Source: Thermoanaerobaculia bacterium
GTDB lineage: Bacteria; Acidobacteriota; Thermoanaerobaculia; Multivoradales; UBA5704
Length of the DNA stretch: 64,000 nucleotides
Direction of reading: 5' to 3'
Assembly (NCBI GenBank): GCA_036002325.1
Contig: DASYTJ010000026.1
Coordinates: 2,416 to 66,415, forward strand
Shown here: positions 7,014 to 21,137 of the stretch, piece by piece
Layout: the number at the start of each line of letters is the position of its first letter
Numbering within the stretch: position 1 is the first letter of the stretch
Notes under the pieces: model-generated
Seen by the model: only the letters and a program-made list of their open reading frames with translations
Databases searched by the model: none
What the model was told of the DNA's origin: nothing
Program-made: the position numbers and the translations under genes

Positions 7014-8033
7014 ATGTCCCACGAAACGATCGAAGATCCCTGGAGCCTTGCGGTCCTGCTGGTGGAGGATGATCCGGCCGCGGCGCGGGTCGTCCGCGAA
7101 CGGCTGGCGAGCGAGCGCCGCGGCCACCTCGCCGTCGAGGTCGTCCCCCGCCTGGAGCAGGCCGTCGAGGCGCTGCGGCAGCGGGCGTACGACGTCCTGC
7201 TGATCGACCTGGCGCTGCCGCGGGAGCCCGGCCTGGAGACGCTGCTGGGCGCCCAGATGCTCGCGCAGCGGATCCCGATCGTGGTGATGACCACCTACCC
7301 CGACGAGGAGCTGGGCGTGCGGGCGGTGGAGGCGGGCATCCAGGAATATCTGATGACGGGCGGCGGCATTCCCGCGGACCTCGGCGGCACTCTGCGCCAC
7401 GCGGCGATCCGCCACCGCATCGTCGCCAAGCTGCGTCGGAGCTGCCAGGTCGCCGCCTGCCGCGCCTCGCGCGATCCGGCGACGGGGCTGGCCAGCCGGC
7501 CCGCGTTCCTGCGCAAGCTGTGGGACGCGCTGGAATTCGCCGAACGTTTCCACGAGCGGCCCGCTCTCCTCCTGGTGGAGCCGGAGGACTTCGCGGCCGT
7601 CAAGGAGCGGCTGGGCCCGGTGCTCGGAGCCAACCTGTTGCAGGAGCTCAGCCGCCGCCTGAGCTGGTGCGTGCGCCGCAGCGACTGTCTCGGGCGCCTG
7701 ACGGACGAGGAGTTCGCCGTCCTGGTGCCGCACGCCGCGACGTCGCCCGCCATCCGCATGATAGCGGAGCGAATCCGCCTCACCTTTACCGCGCCGTTCC
7801 GCACCGGCGGTCCGAGCCTCCGGTTGCGCGCCAGCCTCGGCGCCGCCTGGTACCCGATGGACGGCGAAACGGTTGGGGCCCTCGTCAAGGCCGCCGAAAC
7901 GGCCCTGGCGGAGGCCCGAGACCTCGGCGGCAACCGCTGCCAGCTCTTCCGCGGCCACGACGTGCCGCCCTGGCCGGAAGACGTGGCGAGTGCGCTTTCG
8001 CTGCAGCAGACCGCCGCGGGAGGTCCCGGATGA
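7014..8033 (+). CDS. Response regulator with a receiver domain fused to a degenerate GGDEF domain
   Basis: ATG 7014 with GGAGA upstream. REC domain (VLLVEDDPAAARVV...DVLLIDLALP). The GGDEF-type domain has TDEEF in place of GG[DE]EF (CLGRLTDEEFAVLV). Confidence 0.85.
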   Translation: MSHETIEDPWSLAVLLVEDDPAAARVVRERLASERRGHLAVEVVPRLEQAVEALRQRAYDVLLIDLALPREPGLETLLGAQMLAQRIPIVVMTTYPDEELGVRAVEAGIQEYLMTGGGIPADLGGTLRHAAIRHRIVAKLRRSCQVAACRASRDPATGLASRPAFLRKLWDALEFAERFHERPALLLVEPEDFAAVKERLGPVLGANLLQELSRRLSWCVRRSDCLGRLTDEEFAVLVPHAATSPAIRMIAERIRLTFTAPFRTGGPSLRLRASLGAAWYPMDGETVGALVKAAETALAEARDLGGNRCQLFRGHDVPPWPEDVASALSLQQTAAGGPG

Positions 8034-10861
8034 CCGCCGAGCGCACGGAGATCGAGCGCGAGCTGGAGCGCAGCAACCGGGAGCTGAGAACCTTCCGCCG
8101 GCTCTCCAAGATCGGGCTCACGACGCCGCTGGACGGGACCACCCTCGGCAGCATGCTGGAGGTGATCTGCGAGGAGACCGGCTTGCCCCTGGCGGCCCTC
8201 GAGCTCTACGACGCTGCAGGGGAGATGATGAGGCTCGCGGCGCACCTCGGCTTTGCCGAGGAAGGGGCCAGAGACCTGGAGTGGACCGCCGACGGCAGCG
8301 TCTCGGGGCAAGTCGCCCGCTTCGGCGTCCACTTCGTCGAGGCCAGGGACCGGGAAGGAGGCCCGAGCAGCGGCGCGGCGCGCCGGTTCGCGGCCCGAAC
8401 CTTCGTCTGCGTACCGATGAAAGCCGAGGGAAGAGTGCTTGGCGCGCTCAGCCTGGGATGCCCCGAGGAGCTCGCGATCGACCAGCGCTTCGTCGACTGG
8501 GTTGCCGACCTCGCCGGCCACGTCGCCGCGATCACCGAGCGCAAACGGACGGCCCAGGCGCTGCACGAGAACGCCGCGCGCCTGCGTCTGCTCATCGAGC
8601 AGATGCCGGCCCTGGTGTGGACCACCGACTCCGACCTCCGCTTCACCTCCTCCCAGGGGGCAGGCCTGGCCGCCATCGGCCTGCAGGCCGGAGAGGTGGA
8701 TGGCCGGCTGGTACCCGAGTTCAGCGAGGCGGGTATTTCCGTCGCGGCCCACCGCCGGGTCCTGGAAGGCGAGTCGGTGAGCTTCCAGGGGCGCCTGCGC
8801 GGCCGGATGTTCGAGGCCCACGTCGAACCCCTGCGCGACGGCAGCGGAGCGATCGTCGGCTGCATCGGCGTGGCTCTCGACGTCACCAGCCGCCACGAGG
8901 CCGAGGAGGAGCTGCGGGGGATCACCGATACTCTTCATGCCCTGGTCGAGGCCTCGCCACTCGCCATCCTGACACTCGATCTGGAAAGCCGGGTGACCTC
9001 CTGGAGCCCGGCCGCCGAGCGCACCTTCGGCTGGAAGGCGGAGGAAGTCCTCGGCCGGCGCCTGCCCTTCGTACCCGACGACAAATGGGACGAGCACATC
9101 TCCTTGCGCGACCGGGTGCTCGCCGGCGAGCTCTTCACCGGTCTCGAGACCCGACGGCTGGACACCAGCGACCGCAAGCGGGCCGAGCAGGCCATCCGCC
9201 GGCTGGCTTCCGTGCCCGAGCCGAGCCCCGAGCCCCTGGTCGAGCTGGACCTCGCCGGCAACACTCTCTACGTCAACCAGGCCGCCCGCAACCGCTTCCC
9301 GGACCTCCAGGCCCTGGGGAGCTGGCATCCGGTGCTCGCCCACGTCGCCTCCGTCCTGCCGCGGTTCCGCCACGGCGAGAAGCGGTCTTTCTCCTTCGAG
9401 GTCAGCCACGAGCAGTCCGTCTACCATCAGATGGTCTACTACGTGCCCGACAGCCTCCTGGTGCGGGTGTTCCTCCACGATCTCACCGAGCAGCACCGCG
9501 CCAAGGAGCTGCTGCGGCGGGAGACTCTCTACGACCGGCTCACGGAGCTGCCCAACCGCGCCGCGTTCCTGCAACAGCTCGGCGTGCGCATCGAGCAAGG
9601 CGACGCCGGCTTCTCCGTGCTCTCTCTCAACCTCGACCGCTTCAAGGTGGTCAACGACAGCCTCGGGCAAGGGGCCGGCGACCAGCTGCTGGCGAGCATC
9701 GCGCAGCGGATCTCCGCCTGCCTGGGGCCGGGCGGCACGGCGGCGCGGCTGGGCAGCGACGAGTTCGCCGTCCTGCTGCGCGAAGCGGACGCGGCCGGCT
9801 CCCTGGAGCTCGCCGCGAGCCTCCGTGAGGCGATCGGCAGGCCGCTGGAGATCGCCCGCCAGGAGATCTTCCCCAGCGTCAGCATCGGCGTCGTCGCCGG
9901 CGAGCGCCACGAAGACGCCGAGTCGGTGCTGCGCGACGCGCACATCGCCATGTACCGCGCCAAGTCTCTGGGCGGCGGCCGCTGCGAAGTCTTCGATCCC
10001 GCCATGGGCAGCCGCTCGCTCGACCGGCTGCGCCTGGAGAATGAGCTGCGCCGGGCCATCGAGCGGAGCGAGCTGGAGATGCACTATCAGCCGATCGTCC
10101 GCCTGGCCGACGGCGCGGTCACCGCCTTCGAAGCCCTGCTGCGGTGGCCCCGACGCGACCGCGGCGATGCCATCCCGCCCGCTGATTTCGTCGCCGTCGC
10201 CGAGGAGTCCGGCCTCATCCTGCCGCTCTCCTACTGGACGCTCGGTCAGGCCTGCCAGTGGCTGCGTGACGGCGGCGAGGAAGGACCCGCCTTGCATCTC
10301 AACGTCTCCGGCCGGCTGTTCTCCGACTTTACCCTGGCCGACCGCGTCCAGGAGGCACTGGCGGAAAACCGCGTCCGCGGCGAGCGGCTCGTGCTGGAGA
10401 TCACCGAGAGCGTGCTGATGGACGACGCCGAGGCCGCTGTGGGGATCCTGGCCCGCATCAAGGCCCTGGGGGTCGGCCTGGCGGTCGACGACTTCGGCAC
10501 CGGCTACTCCTCGCTCTCCTATCTGCAACGCTTCCCGATCGACCACCTCAAGATCGACCGCTCCTTCTTGGCCTCGCTGGGCGGGCCGGGAGAGAACCAC
10601 GAGATCCTGCGCGCCATCCTGACTCTCGCCCGCGGTCTCGGCATCGAGGTGATCGCCGAAGGCGTCGAAACCGAGGACCAGCTCGACCGGCTCCTCACTC
10701 TGGGTTGCGATCTGGCGCAAGGCTACCTCTTCGCTCTTCCCATGGACCGGGAAACGGCGCGGGCCCTGCTCGCAGCGCCGCCCTCCTGGATCGGCCTGAT
10801 CGAGCGCTCCGCGGCCTCGCCGGTGAACGTCACACCGCTGCGCCGGCCGGCTGTGTCATGA
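8030..10861 (+). CDS. GAF/PAS sensor protein with GGDEF and EAL domains (c-di-GMP turnover)
   Basis: ATG 8030 overlaps the previous stop (ATGA). Contains PAS-like repeats, the GGDEF variant RLGSDEFAVLL, and EAL motifs FEALLRW and DDFGTGYSSLSYL. The track ORF 7520-10861 is over-extended at its 5' end. Confidence 0.9.
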   Translation: MTAERTEIERELERSNRELRTFRRLSKIGLTTPLDGTTLGSMLEVICEETGLPLAALELYDAAGEMMRLAAHLGFAEEGARDLEWTADGSVSGQVARFGVHFVEARDREGGPSSGAARRFAARTFVCVPMKAEGRVLGALSLGCPEELAIDQRFVDWVADLAGHVAAITERKRTAQALHENAARLRLLIEQMPALVWTTDSDLRFTSSQGAGLAAIGLQAGEVDGRLVPEFSEAGISVAAHRRVLEGESVSFQGRLRGRMFEAHVEPLRDGSGAIVGCIGVALDVTSRHEAEEELRGITDTLHALVEASPLAILTLDLESRVTSWSPAAERTFGWKAEEVLGRRLPFVPDDKWDEHISLRDRVLAGELFTGLETRRLDTSDRKRAEQAIRRLASVPEPSPEPLVELDLAGNTLYVNQAARNRFPDLQALGSWHPVLAHVASVLPRFRHGEKRSFSFEVSHEQSVYHQMVYYVPDSLLVRVFLHDLTEQHRAKELLRRETLYDRLTELPNRAAFLQQLGVRIEQGDAGFSVLSLNLDRFKVVNDSLGQGAGDQLLASIAQRISACLGPGGTAARLGSDEFAVLLREADAAGSLELAASLREAIGRPLEIARQEIFPSVSIGVVAGERHEDAESVLRDAHIAMYRAKSLGGGRCEVFDPAMGSRSLDRLRLENELRRAIERSELEMHYQPIVRLADGAVTAFEALLRWPRRDRGDAIPPADFVAVAEESGLILPLSYWTLGQACQWLRDGGEEGPALHLNVSGRLFSDFTLADRVQEALAENRVRGERLVLEITESVLMDDAEAAVGILARIKALGVGLAVDDFGTGYSSLSYLQRFPIDHLKIDRSFLASLGGPGENHEILRAILTLARGLGIEVIAEGVETEDQLDRLLTLGCDLAQGYLFALPMDRETARALLAAPPSWIGLIERSAASPVNVTPLRRPAVS

Positions 10862-11360: not shown

Positions 11361-12878
11361 TCAAGCCGCCTCTTCCATCGGCCGCTCCGCCGGGACCACC
11401 GCGGCGGGATCCACGCCCAAGGCGCGGAAGCGGTTGAGCAGGTCGTCCTTGTCCACCGCCTTGAGGTAGGCCTCCCGCGGTTCGACGATCCTGGCCTCCA
11501 CCAGCTTGGCCAGCGAATCGTTGAGCAGTTGCATGCCGGCCTTGCGGCCGATCTGCATCAGCGACGGGATCTGGAAGGTCTTCCCCTCACGGATCAGGTT
11601 GGCGATGGCCGGCGTGCAGATCATGATCTCGTAGGCGGCGATACGGCCGCCGCCGATCTTCTTGAGCAGGGTCTGGGCGATGACGGCCCGCAGGCTGCTG
11701 GAGAGCATGAGCCGGATCTGCGCCTGCTGGCTGGGCGGGTACTGATCGATTAGCCGGTCGACGGTCGAGGGCGCCGTCGTGGTGTGCAGGGTGCCGAAGA
11801 CGAGGTGGCCGGTCTCCGCCGTCTCGATGGCGATCGCCGTCGTCTCCAGGTCCCGCATCTCGCCGACCAGCACGACGTCCGGGTCCTCGCGCAGGGCGGC
11901 ACGCAAAGCGCGCTCGAACGAGCCGGTGTGGCTTCCCACTTCGCGGTGGTGGACGAGGCACCCCTTGGAGGGATGGACGAACTCGATCGGATCCTCGATG
12001 GTGATGATGTGATCGCTGCGCGTCTCGTTGACGCGGTCGAGGATCGCGGCGAGCGTCGTCGACTTTCCCGAGCCGGTCGGTCCGGTGACGAGCACCAGGC
12101 CGCGCGCCAGGTCGGCGAGCTGGCAGACGACGGGGGGCAGCCCCAGCTCGGCGGCCGAGGGGATCTTGTAAGGGATCTGGCGGAACACGGCGCCGATCCC
12201 CTCCCGCTCCCGGAACAGGTTGGCCCGGAAACGCCCCTTGCCCGGCAGCTCGACGGCGAAGTCGGTGTCGTTGGTGGCCTCGAACTCTTCGCGGTTGCGC
12301 TGCGGGGCCACGGCGAAGAGCAGCTTCTTGAGCTCGACGGCGGCCGGCGGCGAGTACTCGGGCAGCGGCAGCAGATCGCCGTGCAGGCGCATCCGCGGCG
12401 TCTGGCTCGAGGAGAGGTGGAGGTCCGAGCCGCCGCGCGCCACCAGCAGCCGCAGCAGGGTCTCGATGGGCGGCAGGGGCCGGGCGTCCGGCGTCGTGGA
12501 GAGCGCGATCACCGGCATGGCGGATGGCTCCGGCAGCTCCGGCTCGGAGGTCATGGAAAGCGGCGGCGCAGGTGCCGCCATCGCCTTGTGGGCGCCATTC
12601 GTGGCGAGGTGCGCGGTCCAGCCGCTCCCCTGAGATACAAAGTGAAAGGTTCGCTCCCCGATCCGATAATCGAACTCGGCCGGCAGCGAAGCGGCGCTGG
12701 CTTCTCCGGGCGCCACCTCCGCCACCAAGCGGGCGATCGTGGGGGCGTCCAGCGGCACGCCCGTGAGCTGGTGCTCCAGTCCGGCGCGCAGCAGGCACGG
12801 CGGCCGGCCCGGCTCGAGGATCACCGCCTCCACGCGCCTCTGCGATGCGGTCGTCAGCAGCTTGTCGAGAATCGCCAT
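11361..12878 (-). CDS. pilT: PilT-family (type IV pilus retraction-type) secretion ATPase with an extra N-terminal domain
   Basis: ATG 12878. Walker A GPTGSGKST, Walker B region DVVLVGEMRD, His box GHLVFGTLHT and PilT-type AIANLIREGK. About 150 extra N-terminal residues resemble a second, degenerate PilT N-domain. The track ORF extends to 13301. Confidence 0.85.
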   Translation of the reverse strand: MAILDKLLTTASQRRVEAVILEPGRPPCLLRAGLEHQLTGVPLDAPTIARLVAEVAPGEASAASLPAEFDYRIGERTFHFVSQGSGWTAHLATNGAHKAMAAPAPPLSMTSEPELPEPSAMPVIALSTTPDARPLPPIETLLRLLVARGGSDLHLSSSQTPRMRLHGDLLPLPEYSPPAAVELKKLLFAVAPQRNREEFEATNDTDFAVELPGKGRFRANLFREREGIGAVFRQIPYKIPSAAELGLPPVVCQLADLARGLVLVTGPTGSGKSTTLAAILDRVNETRSDHIITIEDPIEFVHPSKGCLVHHREVGSHTGSFERALRAALREDPDVVLVGEMRDLETTAIAIETAETGHLVFGTLHTTTAPSTVDRLIDQYPPSQQAQIRLMLSSSLRAVIAQTLLKKIGGGRIAAYEIMICTPAIANLIREGKTFQIPSLMQIGRKAGMQLLNDSLAKLVEARIVEPREAYLKAVDKDDLLNRFRALGVDPAAVVPAERPMEEAA

Positions 12879-12889
12879 GGCCCGCGCTC

Positions 12890-13420
12890 CTAGGGGATGA
12901 CCCGCACGATGGCGTCCCGGTTGATGTACATCACCGCGGCCGGTGCGAGGAAGAGCAGGAACCGCTCTTCCGAGAGATTGAGCAGGTCCGAGAGCCGGCA
13001 GCGCGCGCTCGGCAGCACGTAGAGGAACTCGCCGTCGAGCACGTAGCCGCTCTGCACGGTGACCCGCGCCCGCTGCCGCACGGCGCCGACCTCCTCCAGA
13101 TGCGATACCTCGGGCAGGATCCCGGAAACGCGGACGTAGGAGATCCAGTTGAGGCTCAACAACTCCACCTGGTCGCCGACCTTGCAGGGCAGAAACCGCG
13201 TTCCCGGATCGTTCAGCCGCTCGCCCATCGTCTCCCGGCCTCCGCCCTGTGCGCTCGCCAGACGCAGGTAGAACGAGGTCATGATCGACTCGCCGTCCCA
13301 CAGGATGACCTCGGCCGCGATGCCCGCCACGCTCTGCTTGTAGCTGTCCAAGGTCGGCGGAGACGCTTTCGTCCCCGGCCAGGCCTCGCGAATCGCCAGA
13401 TTGCTCCGTGCTCCTATCAT
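12890..13420 (-). CDS. Hypothetical protein (176 aa), operonic with the PilT-like ATPase
   Basis: ATG 13420 is preceded by GGAGGAG. The stop lies 11 nt before the pilT-like start. Only this 3' part of the long track ORF 12890-14326 looks genuine. Confidence 0.6.
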   Translation of the reverse strand: MIGARSNLAIREAWPGTKASPPTLDSYKQSVAGIAAEVILWDGESIMTSFYLRLASAQGGGRETMGERLNDPGTRFLPCKVGDQVELLSLNWISYVRVSGILPEVSHLEEVGAVRQRARVTVQSGYVLDGEFLYVLPSARCRLSDLLNLSEERFLLFLAPAAVMYINRDAIVRVIP

Positions 13421-13735: not shown

Positions 13736-14281
13736 ATGTTCAGTCGAAAAGTGTTCTTGGGAGTCATCGTTCTCCTGCTGGCGGTCGCGGGCGCGGCCGG
13801 GGCGCAGACCACCGTCACGCTCCCGGACACCAGCCAGACCACCACGCTCACCGCGAGCGTCAGCGAGCAGGCGCAGGTGACAGTGCCGTCGGGCGTGACC
13901 TTCAACGTCACCAACGTCGCCAGCAGCACGGCGGCGAGCGCCGCCTCGGTGACGGTGAGCAACATCGTGCTGGCGACCGCCACCAAGCAGCTCAAGGTCT
14001 CCATCCAGGGCGGGGCCGCGTCGTTTACGCCGCCGGTCGTCGGCGCCACCACCTGGGCGGTCGGCGACGTGACCTGGAACGCCGCCACTTGGACGAACGC
14101 CACCGGCGCCTCCGGCACGCTGAGCAACAGCTCGTACACCGAGGTGGCCACCTGCGCCGCCGACGCTGCGACCTGCAGCACCACGGGGCTCGTCTTCACC
14201 CTCGGGGCGAAGAGCACGGTCAAGCGCTCGGGCAGCCATACGCTGAGCATGACCTGGAAGTTCGAGAGCATCGGCACGTAG
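13736..14281 (+). CDS. Secreted Thr/Ser/Ala-rich beta-type protein, putative major fibre/fimbrial subunit (paralog 1)
   Basis: GGGAGG upstream of ATG 13736. Signal peptide MFSRKVFLGVIVLLLAVAGAAGA-Q. Contains a C-x6-C pair and the C-terminal motif TWKFESIGT. A close paralog lies at 18050-18595. Confidence 0.7.
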   Translation: MFSRKVFLGVIVLLLAVAGAAGAQTTVTLPDTSQTTTLTASVSEQAQVTVPSGVTFNVTNVASSTAASAASVTVSNIVLATATKQLKVSIQGGAASFTPPVVGATTWAVGDVTWNAATWTNATGASGTLSNSSYTEVATCAADAATCSTTGLVFTLGAKSTVKRSGSHTLSMTWKFESIGT

Positions 14282-14300
14282 CGGAGGGTGGTTGTTTGTA

Positions 14301-14331
14301 GGGGCGGCTCCATGGGGCCGCCCCACTTTTT
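14301..14331 (+). terminator. Rho-independent terminator/attenuator after the first subunit gene
   Basis: GGGGCGGC-tccatggg-GCCGCCCC followed by ACTTTTT, located 20 nt after stop 14281 and 16 nt before the next start. Confidence 0.7.
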
Positions 14332-14346
14332 GGGAGATCTGCTGCC

Positions 14347-15174
14347 ATGAAAATGATCCGCGCCACGCTTCTGCTCCTCGCCCTGCTGCTGCTCGGCCGC
14401 GCGCCTGCTCCGGCGATCCAGTTCTCGTCGAGCTTCGAGTCGATCAAGATCGACGGCCGGCCGGGCGAGGTGGTCAGCCGGGAGTTCCGGCTCCGCCTGT
14501 CGCCGGGAGGGAAGCGGGCCCAGTTCAAATCCCGCACCGAGGACTGGTGGGCCAGCGAGGACGGCGCCAACTCCTACTACCGGCCGGCGGGAACTCTCCC
14601 CCGTTCCTGCGCCACCTGGATCACGCTGAACCCGGTGGAGACCGCCGTCGAGCCGGGCGGCACCCTGGCGATCCGCGTGACCGCCGCCATTCCGCGCGGC
14701 GTCAAGCCCGGCGGCTATTGGTGCGTGCTGACGGTGGACGAGGTGCCGGATCCCTTGACGGCGCCGGCGGGAGTCGCGGTGCAATTCCTGTCCTCCGTGT
14801 CGGTGGGGATCTTCATCAACATCGAGCCGGTGACGCGCGCCGCCGAGATCCGTGACGTCGAGCTCGCCCGAGGCCAGGCGCGCCTCAAGGTCTGCAACCT
14901 CGGCAACGCCCCGCTCGGCGCCGAAGGCCGGATCGAGTTCCTGCGGCCCGGCGCCTCGGCTCCGGCGGCGACGGCGGTCATCCGGCGGGCCACGGTGCTC
15001 ACCGATCCGGCTCCCTGCCGCGTGCTGTCGGCGGACCTGCCCGCTTCGTCTTCGCTGCCGGCGGGTAAGTACCTCGTGCTGATCCTCCTCGACATCGGAG
15101 TCGATCACTATCTCGGCGTCCAGAAAGAGATGGAGATCGGGCGTGATCTCCTCGCCCCGGTTGCCGGCCGCTAG
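14347..15174 (+). CDS. Secreted two-domain Ig-like periplasmic protein (chaperone-like by position)
   Basis: Signal peptide MKMIRATLLLLALLLLGRAPAPA. Two beta-sandwich-like halves (GEVVSREFRLRLSP...GGTLAIRVTAAIP; ARLKVCNLGNAPLGAEGRIEF...GKYLVLILLDIG). No motif I can assign to PapD-type chaperones. Confidence 0.6.
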   Translation: MKMIRATLLLLALLLLGRAPAPAIQFSSSFESIKIDGRPGEVVSREFRLRLSPGGKRAQFKSRTEDWWASEDGANSYYRPAGTLPRSCATWITLNPVETAVEPGGTLAIRVTAAIPRGVKPGGYWCVLTVDEVPDPLTAPAGVAVQFLSSVSVGIFINIEPVTRAAEIRDVELARGQARLKVCNLGNAPLGAEGRIEFLRPGASAPAATAVIRRATVLTDPAPCRVLSADLPASSSLPAGKYLVLILLDIGVDHYLGVQKEMEIGRDLLAPVAGR

Positions 15175-17431
15175 GGCACGGGCCGTGCTCTGCGGCCTGC
15201 TCCTCGCCGCGGGCGCGCGGCCCGCTCCTGCCGCCGAGCCGGGCTGGACGGTCACGGTGCGAGGCCTGGACGTCACCCGGGCCGCCGCTCCCGTGATCTC
15301 CGGACCCGTGCTGCTGGTGGACGCGGCCGCCCTCGCCCCTACGCTGCGGCTGGTCGTCCGCGCCGCCGGGCGCGAGGCGTCGGTGCGCGACGTCGCCGGC
15401 GTCGAGTGGCGGGGCACGGCGGGCGACTCGCTCTTGACGGCCCCGGGCCGCAGCATGAACCTCGAGCGCTCGCTACGCATCGAGGGCCGGTCGGTGTACC
15501 TCCCGGCGAGCGCCGTCGCGGAGCTGGCAGGTCTCCGTCTCGTCGTCGATCCCGAAGCCCGCACGGCAGGGCTCGAGGACGCCGCGGGCGCCGCCGGCGT
15601 TTCACCCGCCGGCTGGCAGAGCTTCAGCCGGCCGAAGCCGGCCCCGCCCGGCGGCAAGAGCCCCGCCGCCTCGCGGCCCGAGCCACGGGACCTCCGGCTG
15701 CCGCCGGACCATGAGACGCTGCGGGTCGGCCTCGGAGTCGGCACCGTGCCGGGGGCCGACGGCGGCGCCGAGCTCACCGCCTCGGGCGCTCTGTGGGGTT
15801 ACGAAACGGGTCTCAACGCCCTGCTGACCGGCGGGCCGGAGGGCCTGGAAATCCAGAGCGGCCACGCAATGCTCACCGATCCGGACCGGGGCTGGGGCGC
15901 CGAAGGCGGAGACCTCTTCACCGAGATCTGGGGATTCGCCCGCGGCGCCCGTTTCCGCTGGCAGCGGGGGGAAGGCGACCGGGCGGTCTGGCCGGCGCTG
16001 TCGGTCTACCTGGAGGATCCCCGCGGCGGCAATGAAGGGACCGTGCTCGCGTACCACGAGGAGGCGCGCGTGGGGCGCTTCACGCTGCTCGAAGGCGAGC
16101 TGGCCTCCGACGGCTCCTGGGTGGCGAGCGGCCGTGTCCAGCGGCAGCGGATGAGCCTGTTCGGATATTACCGGCAGGACTCCGGCCGCTTCGACGCGCA
16201 GGGCGAAGGCCTCGCGGCTTCCTTCGAGCTGCCACTCGGCCTCTCCTTCCAGGCTTCGCTGTCGCGCAGCGGCTCGGGCCGCCAACGCCTGGACGGCCGG
16301 ACCTTTTCGCTCCGGATCCCTCTCCGCCCGGGCCTCGACGCCGGCGTCGAGAGCACGCGCACGGAGGGCGCCGCGACCCGCGGCCGGATCGACGCCGTGG
16401 TGGCGAGCGCCGCCCTCGGCCGCCTGCAGGTCCGCAGCCGCTTCCAGCGGCGGGAGACCGCAATCGCGCTGCTCTCCTTCGGCCGCTCCGTGCGCCTGCG
16501 CCAGGACGAGCTGTTCACCTCCGCCTCCTGGATCGCCGGCTCGCGGCTGCGGCTGGAGGCGCAGCTCGCCGAGCGCTGGCCCGAGCGCGGCGCGCGGGAG
16601 GAGTGGCGGCAGATCAACGCCTCCTACAGCCTCTCGCCGCGCACCTCGCTGCAGCTCTTCGCCGCTTCGTCGTCCTCGGGCCTCGCGGACACCTTCCGCC
16701 TGCGGATCGACCGCGAGATCCGCCCCGGCTTCGCCCTCTACGCCGAGTACGGCGACGTCGTCACCTTCCAGTCTCTCGCCTCCGGACCCGGCGAAGACCG
16801 GTCCCGCTTCCGCATCATGGTCCGCCGCACCTGGGACGTCGCCACTCCGGCCTCGCGCAGCGCCGTGGAGGGCGTTCTCGGCAGCAGCGGCGACCTGCCG
16901 ACCGCCGGCCTGCCGGTGCAGCTCGGCCCCTACCGGACCGTGACCGACGCCGACGGCCGCTACGCCTTCGCCCATGTCCCGCCGGGCCGCTACGTGCTGG
17001 GCGTGCCTCCCGAGGGCCTCCCCGCCGACGCCACGGCCGGTCCGCCCGCCGCCGTCCAGGTGAAGCGTAGGCGCACCCAGCGCGTCGACCTGTCCGTCGT
17101 CCCCCTGAGCGAGGCCCGCGGCTGGGTGTACGTGGACCGCGATGGCGACGGCCGGCGCGATCCCGGCGAAGGGATCGGCGGCGTCGCCCTGACCCTGGAC
17201 GACCGCACGACCGCCAGCGCCCCCGACGGCTCCTTCGGCTTCTTCAACCTGCCGCCCGGCTCTCACCGATTGCGGATCGAGACCGGCCTGCTGCCCGCGG
17301 GGATCGAGGCCCTGCCGCCGCTCGAGATGAGCATCGGTCTGCCGCCGGGCCAGTCGATCGATCACCTGGAGCTGCGCCTCCAGGAGAAGACCAAACCCGT
17401 CGTCTTCCAGGAGGCCCGGCGATGGAAGTGA
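15143..17431 (+). CDS. Large secreted outer-membrane-type protein (usher-like by position) with an N-terminal soluble domain, a beta-strand-rich core and two C-terminal CarboxypepD_reg/Cna-B-like repeats
   Basis: GTG 15143 overlaps the previous gene by 32 nt. Signal RLPAARARAVLCGLLLAAGARPAPA-A. A long region of alternating hydrophobic/polar strands follows. C-terminal repeats are DADGRYAFAHVPPGRYVL and DGSFGFFNLPPGSHRLRIE. Confidence 0.6.
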   Translation: MISSPRLPAARARAVLCGLLLAAGARPAPAAEPGWTVTVRGLDVTRAAAPVISGPVLLVDAAALAPTLRLVVRAAGREASVRDVAGVEWRGTAGDSLLTAPGRSMNLERSLRIEGRSVYLPASAVAELAGLRLVVDPEARTAGLEDAAGAAGVSPAGWQSFSRPKPAPPGGKSPAASRPEPRDLRLPPDHETLRVGLGVGTVPGADGGAELTASGALWGYETGLNALLTGGPEGLEIQSGHAMLTDPDRGWGAEGGDLFTEIWGFARGARFRWQRGEGDRAVWPALSVYLEDPRGGNEGTVLAYHEEARVGRFTLLEGELASDGSWVASGRVQRQRMSLFGYYRQDSGRFDAQGEGLAASFELPLGLSFQASLSRSGSGRQRLDGRTFSLRIPLRPGLDAGVESTRTEGAATRGRIDAVVASAALGRLQVRSRFQRRETAIALLSFGRSVRLRQDELFTSASWIAGSRLRLEAQLAERWPERGAREEWRQINASYSLSPRTSLQLFAASSSSGLADTFRLRIDREIRPGFALYAEYGDVVTFQSLASGPGEDRSRFRIMVRRTWDVATPASRSAVEGVLGSSGDLPTAGLPVQLGPYRTVTDADGRYAFAHVPPGRYVLGVPPEGLPADATAGPPAAVQVKRRRTQRVDLSVVPLSEARGWVYVDRDGDGRRDPGEGIGGVALTLDDRTTASAPDGSFGFFNLPPGSHRLRIETGLLPAGIEALPPLEMSIGLPPGQSIDHLELRLQEKTKPVVFQEARRWK

Positions 17432-18036
17432 ACAGGACTCGAATGTCGACACCAATGGCGTGCGCTCTTGGCGTCGCCCTTCTGGCGGCGGCGACCGCCT
17501 ACGGCCAGGAACAGGTTCGCATCCAGGTGCCGGAGAGCGTCGTCTTCGAGGTGCTGGACGCCAAGACGAAGAGCGGGGCGCCGCCGTCCCGGCTGGCCTT
17601 CGACCAGGCGATCCTGGCTTCCGACCACCGCCTGCGGGTCAGCGTGCGGGCGGAAAGGCTGGACTTCGCGAGCTCGGGCGCTCCGCCGCGGATCTTCTTC
17701 ACCGCCCACGGCGCCCGCGGCGGCACCGGGTTCAGCGGACCGCTGCGCGAGACGGACTTCACTCCGGTCTTCGAAGGCGATCCCTTCGCTCTCGCCGGCG
17801 GCGTGGAGATCGCCTGGACCCTCGAACGCTTCCAGGATCTCGGCGGCGCCCGCGTCTATCCCGTCTTCCTGCGCTGGAAGGTGGAATCCGTTCCCGGCGG
17901 GAACCGGCCCGGCAACCGGTTCCCGGACGCCGGAGATCCGCTCGCCGCGGCGTCGGGCCGAGCGTCTGCGGCCTCCGGCAGCCCGGGATTCGCTCATGAC
18001 GCGGCGGCACGGGAGCTGCCGCCTCCGCCGCGCTGA
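17422..18036 (+). CDS. Secreted divergent paralog of the subunit-like proteins (putative minor subunit/adaptor)
   Basis: AGGAGG lies 7 nt upstream of ATG 17422, which overlaps the previous stop. Signal MACALGVALLAAATAYG-Q. Ends its conserved part with FLRWKVESVP, compared with TWKFESIG in the paralogs. Confidence 0.6.
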   Translation: MEVNRTRMSTPMACALGVALLAAATAYGQEQVRIQVPESVVFEVLDAKTKSGAPPSRLAFDQAILASDHRLRVSVRAERLDFASSGAPPRIFFTAHGARGGTGFSGPLRETDFTPVFEGDPFALAGGVEIAWTLERFQDLGGARVYPVFLRWKVESVPGGNRPGNRFPDAGDPLAAASGRASAASGSPGFAHDAAARELPPPPR

Positions 18037-18049
18037 AAGGGAACGATCC

Positions 18050-18595
18050 ATGGCCGGAAAGCGGATTCTCGGAGCTCTCGTCGCCGCGGCACTGACAACA
18101 GCCGCGGCGGCCGGCGGTCAGACCACGGTGACGCTGCCCGACACCAGCCTGACCACCGAGGTCTACACGAAAGTCGCGGAGACGGCGGACGTCACCGTGC
18201 CGGCGGGCGTCATCTTCCCCGTCCTCAACGTCGCCGCCGGCACCACGGCCGGCGCCGCCTCCATGACGGTCAGCAACATCCTGCTGGAGACGGCGACCAA
18301 GCAGCTCAAGATTTCCATCCAGGCCGGCGCAGCGTCCTTCACTCCTCCCGTGAGCGGCGCCACCACGTGGTCGGCCAGCGACGTGACCTGGAACGCCGCC
18401 ACCTGGACGAACGCCACCGGCGTCGGCGGAATTCTGAGCAGCAGCGCCTTCACCGAGGTCGCCACCTGCAACGCCAACGTTGCGAGCTGCGGCACGACCG
18501 GGCTCGTCTTCACCCTGGCGCCGAAGAGCACGGTCAAGCGCGCGGGCGACCACATCCTGTCCATCACCTGGAAGTTCGAAAGTATCGGCCTGTAG
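18050..18595 (+). CDS. Secreted Thr/Ser/Ala-rich beta-type protein, putative fibre subunit (paralog 2)
   Basis: AAGGGA upstream of ATG 18050. Signal ILGALVAAALTTAAAAGG-Q. Collinear with 13736-14281 (QTTVTLPDTS..., ATKQLK[VI]SIQ[GA]GAASFTPP, DVTWNAATWTNATG, C-x6-C, TWKFESIGL). Confidence 0.7.
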   Translation: MAGKRILGALVAAALTTAAAAGGQTTVTLPDTSLTTEVYTKVAETADVTVPAGVIFPVLNVAAGTTAGAASMTVSNILLETATKQLKISIQAGAASFTPPVSGATTWSASDVTWNAATWTNATGVGGILSSSAFTEVATCNANVASCGTTGLVFTLAPKSTVKRAGDHILSITWKFESIGL

Positions 18596-18639
18596 CACCG
18601 CTTGACAATCCGTACCAGAGCGGTACAGAATCAATCGTG

Positions 18640-18664
18640 TTTATTGAGATGAAATCTCAATAAA
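18640..18664. promoter_or_regulatory. AT-rich perfect palindrome (11-bp arms), candidate metalloregulator operator upstream of the TonB-dependent receptor
   Basis: TTTATTGAGAT-GAA-ATCTCAATAAA in an otherwise GC-rich region. A TTGACA hexamer at 18602-18607 with TACAGA 16 nt downstream precedes it. Confidence 0.45.
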
Positions 18665-18824
18665 GAGTTTCTCCTCCGGGATCCGACTCGCGGAACCCGG
18701 TGAAAAACAAACGAGGTGACCCGGCCTCACCTGGCAAGCGGTGCCGGACCACCCCGACGACCCGAGGCGCACGGAACCTCCGCGAGCGGCGGCCCGTGGC
18801 CTTTGGTACAGGAGGCATCTTACC

Positions 18825-21137
18825 ATGCAGGTCTCGCCTCGCCTTGCGCTCTTCCTTGTTGCCTTCAGTACGATGCAGTCGGTCTTCGCCGCGACATCCG
18901 ATCCGCCGGCTGAATCCCGCGAGCCGGCTACCGCGGAAGCGGCGACGGCCGATGCCGAGCCGCCCACTTTCCTCGATGCCATTACCGTGACGGCGACGCG
19001 GAGCCCGAAGAGCGTCAAGGACGCTCCGGGGTCCGTCTCGGTGATCGACGCGGCGCGGATCGAGCGGGAGATGGCGGCCGACGCCCGCGATCTGGTCCGT
19101 TTCGAGCCGGGCGTCTACGTCGAGGGTGACGTGACCCGCCTGGGCCTCTCGGGCTTCAACATCCGCGGCGTCGGCGGCAACCGGGTGCTCACCCAAGTGG
19201 ACGGCATTCCTACCGCGGAGCAGTTCAGCTTCGGTCCGCTCAGCGTGCCGCAGACGTTTCTCGATCTCGACGCGGTCTCCTCAGTGGAGATCGTGCGCAG
19301 CGCCGCTTCGTCGCTCTACGGCAGCGACGCGCTGGGCGGCGTCGTCTCCGTGGTCACCAAGGATCCGCGGGATCTGCTCGATGGCGGCCGGAGCGCCTTC
19401 CGGCTGCGGGCCGGCTACGACGGCCGGGACCGCGAGGTTTCCGAGAGCCTCACCGGCGCCTTCGGCAGCCAGAGATGGGACGGCTCGCTGCTGGTCTCCC
19501 GCCGCGACGGCGAGGAGATGGACAATCAGGGGACCGTCGAAACCGCCAACAGCTCGCGCACGGCGCCCAATCCGGCCGACCGCGAAGGGACGCAGGCGCT
19601 GGGCAAGGTGGTCTTCCGGCCGAGCGGCTCCTTGACGTGGCGTCTGGGGCTCGAGCGCTACGCCGGCCGGACAGACACCGCGGTGCTGAGCTCGCAGGGC
19701 CTCGTCGACATGAGCGCCGGCTTTCCGCCCGGCGCGGTCTTCACCATCGACACCACGAACTTCGACGCCCGCGACGAGGTGGACCGTTCCCGCCTCTCGC
19801 TGGAGCAGTCGCTGCAGCGTTCCGGCGGTCTTTTCGACACTCTCTTCTGGCGGCTCTACGGCCAGGACAGCGAGTCCGAGCAGCACACGGTCGAGCGCCG
19901 CGTCACCACACAGGGCGGCTCGGTCCTCGGCCCCATCCGCACCACCAGCGTGGACCGTTTCGGGCTGCTGACCTTCGAGCAGCGGCGGCTCGGCGGCGAG
20001 GCGCAGATGATGCGCTACGTCGAGGTGCGGAGCGTGCCGGTGCTGTTCACCTATGGCGCGAGCGCGGGCCGCGACAGTTTCGATCAGCTCCGCAACCGCA
20101 GGGACGTGAATCTTGCCACCGGCGCCACCGTGCCGGGCGCGCTGCCCTTCCCCACCAAGTACTTCCCGGAGAGCGAGGTCACCGAGCTTGGGGCCTACTT
20201 GCAAGCCGAGCTGGAGCTGGCCGGCGGCCGCCTGCGGCTCACTCCCGGCCTGCGCTTCGACCGCTTTGATCTCGACGCCGACCAGGACGACCGGATCTAT
20301 CGGAGCGGCAACCCCGGGACGCTGCCGCCCGCCGACCTCAGCGACGCGGCGCTCTCGCCCAAGCTCTCTCTCGTCTACGCGCCCAAACCTTCTCTCGCGG
20401 TCTTCGCGCAGTACGCCCGCGGCTTCCGGGCGCCGCCGTACAGCGAGGTCAACAACGGCTTCACCAACGTGGCGAGCGGCTATACCACTCTCGCCAATCC
20501 GGACCTCCGGCCCGAGACGAGCGACAACTACGAGGTGGGCGTCCGCGCCGCCATGGGCAAGGCGAGCCTGAGCTTCACGGTCTTCGACAACCGCTACGAG
20601 GACTTCATCGAGACGGTGACGGTGGGATTCAACCCGGCGACCGGGCTGATCGAGTTCCAGCCGCGGAACGTGACGGAGGCGAGGATCCACGGCGTTGAAG
20701 TGGCGGGCGACGCGGCCCTCGGTTCCCTGCTGCGCCTGCGCGGCAGCTTCGCTTGGATCGAAGGGGAGAACCGCACCGCGGACGTGCCGCTCAACACGAT
20801 CCCCCCGGCCCGGCTGGTGCTCGGCCTGCAGCTCCGCCCGTCCGGCAGCCGCTTCGGCGCCGAGCTGGTCTCCACCGTCGCCGCCGGCAAGGACGAGGAC
20901 GATCTGGACACCTCCGCCGTCCGCCAGTTCGCGGCCCCCAGCTACGAGGTCTTCGACCTCACCGCGTTCATGGAGATCACCGAGCGGCTCTCCGTGCACG
21001 CGGGCGTGTTCAACCTGCTCGACGAAACCTACTGGGAGTGGGCCAACGTGCGCGGCGTCGCCGCCGCCTCGCCAGTCCTCGACCGCTACACCAGTCCCGG
21101 CCGCGCGGCGGCGGCATCGCTGCGCTGGCATTGGTAG
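18825..21137 (+). CDS. TonB-dependent outer-membrane receptor (haem/haemoglobin-transferrin-type features)
   Basis: AGGAGG lies 9 nt upstream of ATG 18825. Signal peptide present. Plug region (ITVTATRSPKSVKDAPGSVSVID, VEIVRSAASSLYGSDALGGVV). FRAP and NPDL boxes (GFRAPPYSEVNNGF...LANPDLRPE). The C-terminus is aromatic (...SLRWHW). Confidence 0.9.
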   Translation: MQVSPRLALFLVAFSTMQSVFAATSDPPAESREPATAEAATADAEPPTFLDAITVTATRSPKSVKDAPGSVSVIDAARIEREMAADARDLVRFEPGVYVEGDVTRLGLSGFNIRGVGGNRVLTQVDGIPTAEQFSFGPLSVPQTFLDLDAVSSVEIVRSAASSLYGSDALGGVVSVVTKDPRDLLDGGRSAFRLRAGYDGRDREVSESLTGAFGSQRWDGSLLVSRRDGEEMDNQGTVETANSSRTAPNPADREGTQALGKVVFRPSGSLTWRLGLERYAGRTDTAVLSSQGLVDMSAGFPPGAVFTIDTTNFDARDEVDRSRLSLEQSLQRSGGLFDTLFWRLYGQDSESEQHTVERRVTTQGGSVLGPIRTTSVDRFGLLTFEQRRLGGEAQMMRYVEVRSVPVLFTYGASAGRDSFDQLRNRRDVNLATGATVPGALPFPTKYFPESEVTELGAYLQAELELAGGRLRLTPGLRFDRFDLDADQDDRIYRSGNPGTLPPADLSDAALSPKLSLVYAPKPSLAVFAQYARGFRAPPYSEVNNGFTNVASGYTTLANPDLRPETSDNYEVGVRAAMGKASLSFTVFDNRYEDFIETVTVGFNPATGLIEFQPRNVTEARIHGVEVAGDAALGSLLRLRGSFAWIEGENRTADVPLNTIPPARLVLGLQLRPSGSRFGAELVSTVAAGKDEDDLDTSAVRQFAAPSYEVFDLTAFMEITERLSVHAGVFNLLDETYWEWANVRGVAAASPVLDRYTSPGRAAAASLRWHW

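Follow-up and report, generated by a model that had tools for sequence, protein, structure and literature searches.

The textbook example of donor-strand assembly is provided by chaperone-usher pili, which have been documented almost only in Proteobacteria. Between strands 6 and 7 of the barrel, their ushers have an inserted plug domain of about 75 residues, and the genes of the Csu system run in the order csuA/B-...-csuC-csuD-csuE. Chaperone-usher systems are sorted into classes from alpha to sigma, a scheme reportedly put forward by Nuccio and Baumler in 2007. The csu components are CsuA/B, A, B, C, D, and E, the archaic class to which they belong has also been described in Cyanobacteria and Deinococcus-Thermus, beyond the Proteobacteria, and the classical and alternate systems occur only in beta- and gamma-proteobacteria (PMC4654587). 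Here, we analyzed a 64,000-nucleotide stretch of DNA from a Thermoanaerobaculia bacterium of the phylum Acidobacteriota (contig DASYTJ010000026.1, positions 2,416 to 66,415), called the window below, in which five adjacent genes, g1 to g5, make up an operon for secreted proteins. The closest known system to this cassette by function and architecture is the chaperone-usher pathway and, by gene order, the archaic Csu type. We consider it moderately likely that the operon is a divergent chaperone-usher-like pathway that builds a surface fiber or another surface polymer by donor-strand complementation/exchange. A sequence-only reading of the window had proposed a chaperone/usher-like fiber operon with components that could not be recognized by sequence, and our analysis supports that interpretation.

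The five genes were found as consecutive open reading frames (ORFs) in the same direction over positions 13736-18595, as seen in Table 1. They are tightly packed, with overlaps of 32 nt between g2 and g3 and 10 nt between g3 and g4, a gap of 13 nt between g4 and g5, and a longer one of 65 nt between g1 and g2. The database call for g3 starts 14 amino acids (aa) downstream of the GTG used here. Sec-type signals were assigned by eye from the sequence, and all five products have a positively charged n-region, a hydrophobic core, and a small-x-small cleavage motif. No lipobox Cys was seen in any of the five N-termini when these were read by eye. The arrangement on one strand, the overlapping or tightly spaced starts, and a Sec signal on every product had each been claimed from the sequence and were all confirmed. 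A terminator-like scan found a 10-bp hairpin with 9 G-C pairs followed by a T-run in the g1-g2 spacer (14301-14324), and a comparable hairpin and T-run occupies the equivalent place in about 8 of the 42 other loci described next, in both phyla. This element is a candidate partial terminator or mRNA stabilizer that would raise the ratio of g1 to g2 expression.

Conservation was examined by scanning one genome per species, 185,579 species in all, with a g2 profile. The scan returned 42 loci, which are numbered with an L below, all of them in metagenome-assembled genomes (MAGs). The hosts belong to the Acidobacteriota (Thermoanaerobaculia, Vicinamibacterales, and Bryobacterales/Solibacteraceae) and to the Armatimonadota (Chthonomonadales and Capsulimonadaceae), apart from one bin labeled Actinomycetes (L041) that holds a fragmented cassette and whose label is probably a binning artefact. 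When the loci were mapped with hidden Markov models (HMMs), the order of one to three g1-type genes, g2, g3, and a g4-type gene was kept in essentially all 42 of them, across two phyla. The operon is not a product of chance, since all four gene families are found again, identically ordered, in 42 other genomes. A check of synteny across Acidobacteriota, suggested along with the sequence-only reading, thus found the order conserved there and also in Armatimonadota. No other conserved neighbor was found beside the cassette when the flanks were searched for a regulator, a peptidase, or a second outer-membrane protein.

The median identity to the window across loci was 67% for g1, 50% for g2, 34% for g4, and 33% for g3, making g1 the most conserved gene of the cassette and g3 and g4 the two least conserved. 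In a rough neighbor-joining tree of g2, the Armatimonadota sequences group together in a single clade within the Acidobacteriota, which suggests that a transfer took place between the phyla. The family occurs only in some Acidobacteriota and Armatimonadota of soil, and it has remote cousins in Deinococcus. In two loci, L041 (CAVYOK010000022.1) and L043 (CAVRLS010000013.1), g2 and g3 are split over several frames, which could reflect pseudogenization or indel errors in long-read assemblies.

The fold of g2 was predicted with AlphaFold2 (AF2) from 120 sequences, giving a predicted local distance difference test score (pLDDT) of 90.4. The model consists of two beta-sandwich domains of the immunoglobulin (Ig)-like type, at approximately aa 33-159 and aa 166-264. 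This is the two-domain plan of PapD-fold chaperones and agrees with the two Ig-like halves that had been read from the sequence. Foldseek searches of the PDB placed the Enterococcus faecium protein WxLIP at the top (9i1y, and 9i25 in which it is bound to a long WxL protein; E 1e-10), followed by the pilus chaperones CsuC, YadV, CupB2, CfaA, FimC, DraB, Caf1M, PapD, and FaeE (E 2e-9 to 1e-7). CsuC was the best chaperone match (E 2e-9), and more than 30 chaperone chains were matched with template modeling scores (TM-scores), normalized to the target, of 0.5-0.6. As a candidate chaperone, g2 is at least as close to Gram-positive WxLIP as to the PapD type. In the family alignment read against the model, the next-to-last strand of domain 1 holds a near-invariant R110 and that of domain 2 an invariant Y242. 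Archaic and alternative chaperones have carboxylate anchors, an Arg and a Tyr, in strand F of domains 1 and 2, and in CsuC these are Arg89 and Tyr196 (PMC4654587). The g2 protein has no transmembrane helix, and its chain stops about 10 residues beyond the final strand of domain 2.

The AF2 model of g3 was built from 23 sequences (pLDDT 81), and its strands were listed with DSSP. It has an N-terminal domain, a disordered linker (aa 148-182), a core of 24 strands joined by short turns, and two C-terminal beta-sandwiches, which is the architecture of an usher. Pfam and NCBIfam together matched only CarboxypepD_reg (residues 586-648) and SdrD_B (661-714) in g3. The model and these two matches agree with each other and with the layout assigned earlier to g3, namely a soluble N-terminal domain, a beta core, and two sandwiches. 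In a Foldseek search of the PDB, each of the top 10 matches was a full-length usher, FimD or PapC (E 8e-16 to 2e-12). Below them came SdrD (1e-10), with AlgE, porins, and TonB receptors no better than 1e-7, so that the ushers beat any other barrel by at least four orders of magnitude in E-value.

The remaining three genes encode the putative subunits. The g1 protein begins with a signal peptide (aa 1-23) and an N-terminal extension (aa 24-43), which are followed by a beta-rich body; it also has a C140/C147 pair and a C-terminal TWKFESIGT. It is 72% identical to g5 (E 1e-76) and 23% identical to g4 (E 6e-9), in line with the earlier view of g5 as a close and g4 as a divergent paralog of g1. Homologs of g1 numbered 862; the top 120 were 69-85% identical, and none of these had a Pfam domain. 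Across the family, subunits fall into two classes. The mature N-terminus of the long class (about 175-190 aa) bears a conserved extension of about 20 residues with alternating hydrophobics, of consensus x-T-V-x-L-P-D-x-S-Q-T-T-T-L-T-A-x-V-S-E-Q-A, and in g1 the alternation is of L, A, and V in TLTAxV. The mature N-terminus of the short class (about 155-168 aa) begins directly at an E-[TS]-V-x-[IV]-x-V-P strand. In g4 it reads QEQVRIQVPESVVF and begins where the body of g1 begins, without the extension. The gene directly after g3 is of the short class in nearly all of the 38 loci, out of 42, in which it was detected. The g5 protein has the same N-terminal extension and C-terminal motif as g1, and an extra long-class copy after g4 is also found in L012 and L019, while other loci have two to three copies before g2.

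The motifs that had been described as shared by the subunits were borne out in part. The C-terminal W-[KR]-x-E-S motif is common to g1, g4, and g5, but the C-x6-C pair is invariant only in g1/g5-type subunits, is missing from g4, and is not conserved across the wider family. Both classes end one to three residues after the C-terminal motif. The exception is g4 and its Thermoanaerobaculia orthologs, in which a tail of 40-60 residues rich in Pro, Arg, and Gly follows the W-K-V-E-S strand, WKVESV in g4 (C-terminus of g4, window 17900-18036); in other orders and in Armatimonadota, g4-type proteins stop one to three residues past this strand. From its sequence, the N-terminal extension of g1 is a candidate donor strand. 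Since g4 has no extension, it would be able to accept a strand and unable to donate one. The long and short classes resemble the pattern that donor-strand exchange would produce if a tip subunit with no donor strand were incorporated first.

Starting from the predicted folds of g2 and g3, the synteny, and the two subunit classes, we infer the following route of assembly. All five products would cross the inner membrane via Sec, as their N-termini suggest. Soluble g2 in the periplasm would then capture unfolded g1, g5, and g4 and complete their beta-sandwiches with a strand of its own, a role proposed from its fold and conservation. R110 and Y242 of g2 may anchor the free C-terminus of the subunit, which comes just after the W-K-x-E-S strand. 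The putative 24-strand barrel of the g3 model would receive the chaperone-subunit complexes and thread the polymer outward, with g4 entering first and ending at the distal tip. Next, g1, together with g5, would be added repeatedly, and the N-terminal extension of each incoming subunit would displace the chaperone strand in the preceding one. Through the hairpin that follows g1, the major subunit would be made in stoichiometric excess.

Sequence searches tied none of the five proteins to a characterized system. Pfam and NCBIfam gave no match for g1, g2, g4, or g5, PDB sequence searches of all five proteins found nothing, and the cassette family has no Pfam or NCBIfam model. Pfam was also scanned with each family member separately (54 + 105 subunits, 120 g2 members, and 23 g3 members), and no usher, PapD, SCPU, Fimbrial, or WxL identification was made in the g1, g2, or g3 families. 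The g1 and g2 family profiles did not match any of these in the PDB either. At E ≤ 10, Fimbrial (PF00419), SCPU (PF05229), and DUF4402 were unmatched in approximately 160 subunit members, and Usher (PF00577), PapC_N (PF13954), and PapC_C (PF13953) were unmatched in g3 and its 22 homologs. The g2 family could not be assigned to PapD_N (PF00345) or PapD_C (PF02753), as one of its 120 members matched PapD_N at E 0.095. The ASH domain (OCRL-like), which we take to belong to the PapD-like clan of Pfam, was weakly matched by 80 of the 120 members. With hhalign, the g2 family profile gave nothing against Escherichia coli FimC, and the g3 family profile gave a probability of 0.6% against E. coli FimD. 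An exhaustive HMM search with a combined g1, g4, and g5 profile against 1.84 billion representative proteins returned only 297 proteins, the family's own. The best 150 of these 297 were all small proteins of 75-269 aa, and there was no bridge to a known family among the matches listed. At the sequence level, then, the cassette is an orphan, and the earlier statement that canonical PapD/FimC, PapC/FimD, and SCPU/Csu motifs could not be recognized holds, in that no HMM places any product in a characterized system.

By predicted fold, on the other hand, the components are recognizable relatives or analogs of chaperone-usher parts, which makes the cassette a divergent variant and not a wholly new pathway. 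The suggestion that the pathway may be undescribed therefore stands in one respect and not in the other: literature searches brought up neither an account of this family in Acidobacteria, Armatimonadota, or Deinococcus nor a link between WxL proteins and ushers, but the parts can be recognized as a chaperone-usher variant by fold.

The archaic (sigma) Csu system is mirrored in several ways. The cassette has the same order of major subunit or subunits, chaperone, usher, and tip subunit. It has a candidate periplasmic chaperone with two Ig-like domains, to which CsuC is a match, and the Arg and Tyr of g2 lie in the strands that hold Arg89 and Tyr196 in CsuC. It also has a large protein with an N-terminal domain, a predicted barrel, and two C-terminal domains, matched in g3 through FimD/PapC, and small Sec-dependent subunits that have an N-terminal extension, together with one, encoded after the usher, that has none. 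In contrast to Csu, the cassette has no detectable similarity to the Usher, PapD_N/C, SCPU, or Fimbrial families. The g3 protein has no plug insert, its N-terminal domain is like Cu_amine_oxidN1, and its C-terminal domains are like CarboxypepD_reg and SdrD_B. The tip candidate, g4, is a single pilin-sized domain instead of a two-domain adhesin, and the major subunit is the most conserved component instead of the most variable.

Type 1 and P pili (FimC-FimD and PapD-PapC) provided the best overall fold matches of g3 and many of those of g2, and they resemble the cassette in having an intergenic hairpin after the major-subunit gene and an adhesin-less short subunit encoded after the usher. They differ in that the hhalign comparisons with FimC and FimD were empty, the plug is absent from g3, its N- and C-terminal domains are of other families, and the host phyla lie outside the beta- and gamma-proteobacteria. 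Because none of the three component types could be assigned by sequence and g3 has no plug, we do not file the cassette in any of the alpha-to-sigma classes.

Three other kinds of pili were considered and rejected. Type V pili (FimA/Mfa of Bacteroidia) have lipoprotein subunits that are processed by a protease, and no usher. They were rejected on the lack of a lipobox Cys in g1 to g5 and the presence of an usher-like barrel. Type IV pili were rejected as well, as the neighboring PilT-like ATPase is not conserved with the cassette. Cyanobacterial CT pili were rejected since PSI-BLAST finds homologs of their pilin only in cyanobacteria (PMC12397347).

Several findings weigh against a chaperone-usher-like pathway. 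A sequence link to Usher, PapD, or pilin families is absent, both by hmmscan of every member and by hhalign against FimC and FimD. The Foldseek TM-scores of g3 are low (0.25-0.33), at approximately 10% identity to FimD/PapC. Scores of this size are expected for a multi-domain protein, yet they do not prove a common architecture; the resemblance of the g3 model to ushers is at the level of architecture, with homology unproven. A 24-strand barrel with a plug was what the sequence-only reading had suggested checking for in g3. The AF2 model, with FimD/PapC as its ten best matches, supplied the 24 strands but not the plug: DSSP on the model showed no non-hairpin insert anywhere in aa 190-569, and strands 6 (264-273) and 7 (282-289) are separated by 8 residues. 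Also, 13 of the 23 g3 family members weakly match Cu_amine_oxidN1 (best E 2e-4) rather than PapC_N. Among the subunits, the C-terminal tail of g4 in the window, about 45 residues long, does not fit simple carboxylate anchoring, and donor-strand exchange would follow only from the presence or absence of the extension. The g1 protein of the Armatimonadota locus L011 is 74% identical to that of the window (53% for g2 and 36% for g3), which is unusual for a major pilin. Possible causes of such a strong constraint are packing over the whole surface, glycosylation, or recent transfer of g1 alone. Lastly, the 42 hosts are all uncultured MAGs, and the fiber is predicted from the genes.

Relatives of the cassette in cultured bacteria were found by tblastn against plasmids. 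Homologs of g2 are encoded on megaplasmids of D. psychrotolerans S14-83, Deinococcus sp. NW-56, Deinococcus sp. D7000, and D. deserti VCD115, and the g2 HMM matched them over their full length (E 1e-25 to 1e-14). They adjoin genes for small secreted T/S-rich proteins ending in TYTLES, TYVLADE, or EYVLIDL and for a large protein of 839-1058 aa that has, as g3 does, a C-terminal CarboxypepD_reg/SdrD_B pair. These cassettes differ from that of the window in three ways: HMM searches detect no homology between their subunits and g1, Ig-like domains take the place of the Cu_amine_oxidN1-like domain at the N-terminus of the large protein, and the gene order departs in three of the four. A profile of the 291-aa Deinococcus subunit found nothing in the PDB. 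The g2 homolog on plasmid 2 of D. deserti VCD115 (L048, 5821-6591) is annotated by NCBI as 'FimB/Mfa2 family fimbrial subunit'. The support for Mfa2 in this protein is a partial Pfam match (21.7 bits vs a cutoff of 21.2), and WxLIP_PGBD is also weakly matched; the label is probably misleading.

The Deinococcus proteins also extend the connection to WxL. Three g2 homologs from Deinococcus matched Pfam WxLIP_PGBD (DUF916/PF06030) over nearly the whole model, below the cutoff (E 0.0017, 0.016, and 0.059), and PF06030 was unmatched in g2 and its 119 homologs. With a profile of g2 and the Deinococcus proteins, EfmWxLIP1 was the top sequence match in the PDB, collinear over 226 positions (query 45-270) at an E of only 0.25. 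Together with the fold ranking, these matches make remote homology of g2 and WxLIP plausible. Three motifs of g1 are collinear with WxL: h-x-h-x-V-P-x-x-h-x-F in both; G-x-x-L-[RK]-h-S-h in g1 vs G-W-x-L-x-V in WxL; and G-x-[HY]-x-x-x-h-x-W-x-[FL] near the C-terminus, at equal spacing. The first W of the dual W-x-L motif is absent in g1, and WxL (PF13731) was unmatched in the approximately 160 g1-family members scanned. Alignment of g1 with 6-8 WxL domains by hhalign was not significant (P 0.07-0.14, probability <1%), with the C-terminal W-x-hydrophobic strand as the best local match. The faint resemblance of the subunit strand to WxL that had been noted is thus a real lead through g2, with its WxLIP fold and profile matches, but the direct comparison of g1 with WxL is not significant.

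In the WxL clusters of Gram-positive plasmids, as in the cassette, the gene for a small, beta-rich secreted protein (WxL) lies directly upstream of that for its two-domain partner (WxLIP). The small protein likewise has an aromatic-x-hydrophobic motif a few residues from its C-terminal end, preceded by G-x-[YH] at equal spacing. In contrast, these clusters, which encode small and large WxL proteins along with WxLIP, are found in monoderms, where they are associated with peptidoglycan, and have no outer-membrane component, they usually include an LPXTG protein, and their WxLIP (DUF916 plus DUF3324/PF11797) ends in a transmembrane helix. The cassette belongs to Acidobacteriota and Armatimonadota, with an usher-like barrel, no LPXTG gene, and a g2 without the helix. 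We know of no report that WxL proteins polymerize. One possible but doubtful account is that the cassette and its Deinococcus cousins are the outer-membrane-bearing counterpart of WxL/WxLIP, in which g1-type proteins would be remote WxL homologs, g2 a soluble WxLIP homolog and chaperone, and g3 an usher that monoderms lost with the outer membrane. If this were true, a single ancient machinery for donor-strand complementation would have branched into both WxL clusters and chaperone-usher pili, and the enigmatic WxL proteins would turn out to be former pilin-like subunits.

The WxL connection also bears on an alternative to the chaperone-usher-like pathway, a WxL/WxLIP envelope complex in a diderm. 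Here, g2 would stay stably bound to g1, g5, and g4 in a non-polymeric adhesin layer, and g3 would be its outer-membrane anchor or exporter. The best fold match of g2, including the WxL-bound 9i25, the profile matches to EfmWxLIP1 and WxLIP_PGBD, and the order of g1 before g2 all suit such a complex, as does the spacing of G-x-H-x-L-x-M-x-W-x-F in g1, which is that of G-x-Y-x-x-x-L-x-W-x-L in WxL. According to predictions, WxLIP supplies one strand that completes the sandwich of WxL (PMC10599100), the same principle as donor-strand complementation by a chaperone. This explanation is nevertheless unlikely. A C-terminal transmembrane helix, which g2 does not have, is found in virtually all WxLIP proteins (PMC10599100), and the g1 family was linked to WxL neither by Pfam nor significantly by hhalign. 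Moreover, WxL clusters have nothing that corresponds to the long and short subunits or to the usher-like barrel, and polymerization explains both.

Another possible explanation is that g3 exports g1, g5, and g4 in the manner of an usher as monomeric beta-sandwich proteins, to be released or displayed at the cell surface, and that these form, for example, a hydrophobin-like or S-layer-like coat with no donor-strand polymerization. The very high conservation of g1 fits a lattice or ligand protein constrained over its whole surface better than a variable pilin, and the g3 model shows no plug, so gating may differ from that of pilus ushers. Monomer export, however, leaves unexplained both why one class bears the extension while the gene after the usher almost always lacks it and why a PapD-like partner is needed, and we regard it as quite improbable. 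Finally, the likeness of g3 to ushers could be the generic similarity of large barrels, with g3 an unrelated outer-membrane channel that has Ig-like accessories and serves, for example, in uptake or envelope maintenance. The low TM-scores and identity of g3 would be accounted for, as would the weak matches of two g3 family members to Porin_4 and the TonB-dependent receptor immediately downstream of the cassette. We consider this very unlikely, since the ushers outrank all porins and TonB receptors in full-length alignments by the margin given above, the receptor is not a conserved neighbor, and the independent PapD-like fold of the adjacent g2 and the subunit paralogs fit one known system.

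The neighborhood of the cassette varies among loci. Between g5 and the gene for the TonB-dependent receptor, a 145-bp stretch has a GC content of 52%, compared to 66-75% in 1-kb stretches of the window. It contains a strong promoter-like site, TTGACA-18-CAGAAT (18602-18631), and a perfect AT-rich palindrome, TTTATTGAGAT-GAA-ATCTCAATAAA (18640-18664), which resembles an operator through which a metal or nutrient regulator would control the receptor. Upstream, the window encodes a large cyclic di-GMP (c-di-GMP) signaling protein. Such a GGDEF/EAL neighbor was present in 7 loci only, being found outside the window within 8 kb of the cassette in L003, L004, L009, L010, L023, and L039; this hints at c-di-GMP control of the cassette in some lineages and not universally. 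The PilT-type ORF of 646 aa is probably overextended at its 5' end, because its ATPase domain occupies residues 396-549. The divergently transcribed 176-aa gene is kept, at 48-66% identity, only in the five closest loci (L003, L004/L001, L009, and L010) and could be a lineage-specific regulator.

Table 1. Positions in the window of the cassette genes, their parts, and neighboring features
Feature	Position	Strand	Size or residues	Description and basis
g1	13736-14281	+	181 aa	ORF; candidate major subunit
g2	14347-15174	+	275 aa	ORF; candidate periplasmic two-domain Ig-like chaperone
g3	15143-17431	+	762 aa	ORF, GTG start; outer-membrane usher-like protein
g4	17422-18036	+	204 aa	ORF; short-class subunit, candidate tip or initiator
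g5	18050-18595	+	181 aa	ORF; second long-class subunit
g1 N-terminal extension	13805-13864	+		QTTVTLPDTSQTTTLTASVS; kept in all long-class and absent from short-class subunits
GC-rich hairpin and T-run between g1 and g2	14301-14334	+		Terminator-like scan; candidate partial terminator or mRNA stabilizer
g3 N-terminal periplasmic domain	15248-15577	+	aa 36-145	Mixed alpha/beta; AF2 secondary structure
g3 putative beta-barrel core	15710-16849	+	aa 190-569	24 consecutive strands; DSSP on AF2 model
g3 C-terminal beta-sandwiches	16862-17386	+	CTD1 (C-terminal domain 1) aa 574-654; CTD2 aa 656-748	CTD1 CarboxypepD_reg-like, CTD2 SdrD_B-like; Pfam and AF2
TonB-dependent receptor	18741-21137	+		Plug and barrel domains, E 2e-59; directly downstream; not a conserved neighbor
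GAF-PAS-GGDEF-EAL c-di-GMP signaling protein	7073-10858	+		Large; upstream
PilT/T2SSE-type ATPase ORF	11361-13301	-	646 aa	ATPase domain; not conserved with cassette
Divergently transcribed gene	12890-13420	-	176 aa	Good Shine-Dalgarno; DUF6812 E 0.14, no real Pfam match

A conserved, self-contained cassette of soil bacteria with the logic of chaperone-usher assembly and no detectable similarity to it in sequence would be invisible to surveys of secretion systems that are based on HMMs. In g3, it would provide a natural usher without a plug insert and with other accessory domains for comparison with known ushers. The WxLIP-like chaperone offers a testable bridge to the WxL surface proteins of enterococci, listeriae, and lactobacilli, and the related Deinococcus cassettes in cultured strains make experiments possible. 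The cassette would thus widen the known range of the donor-strand assembly principle.

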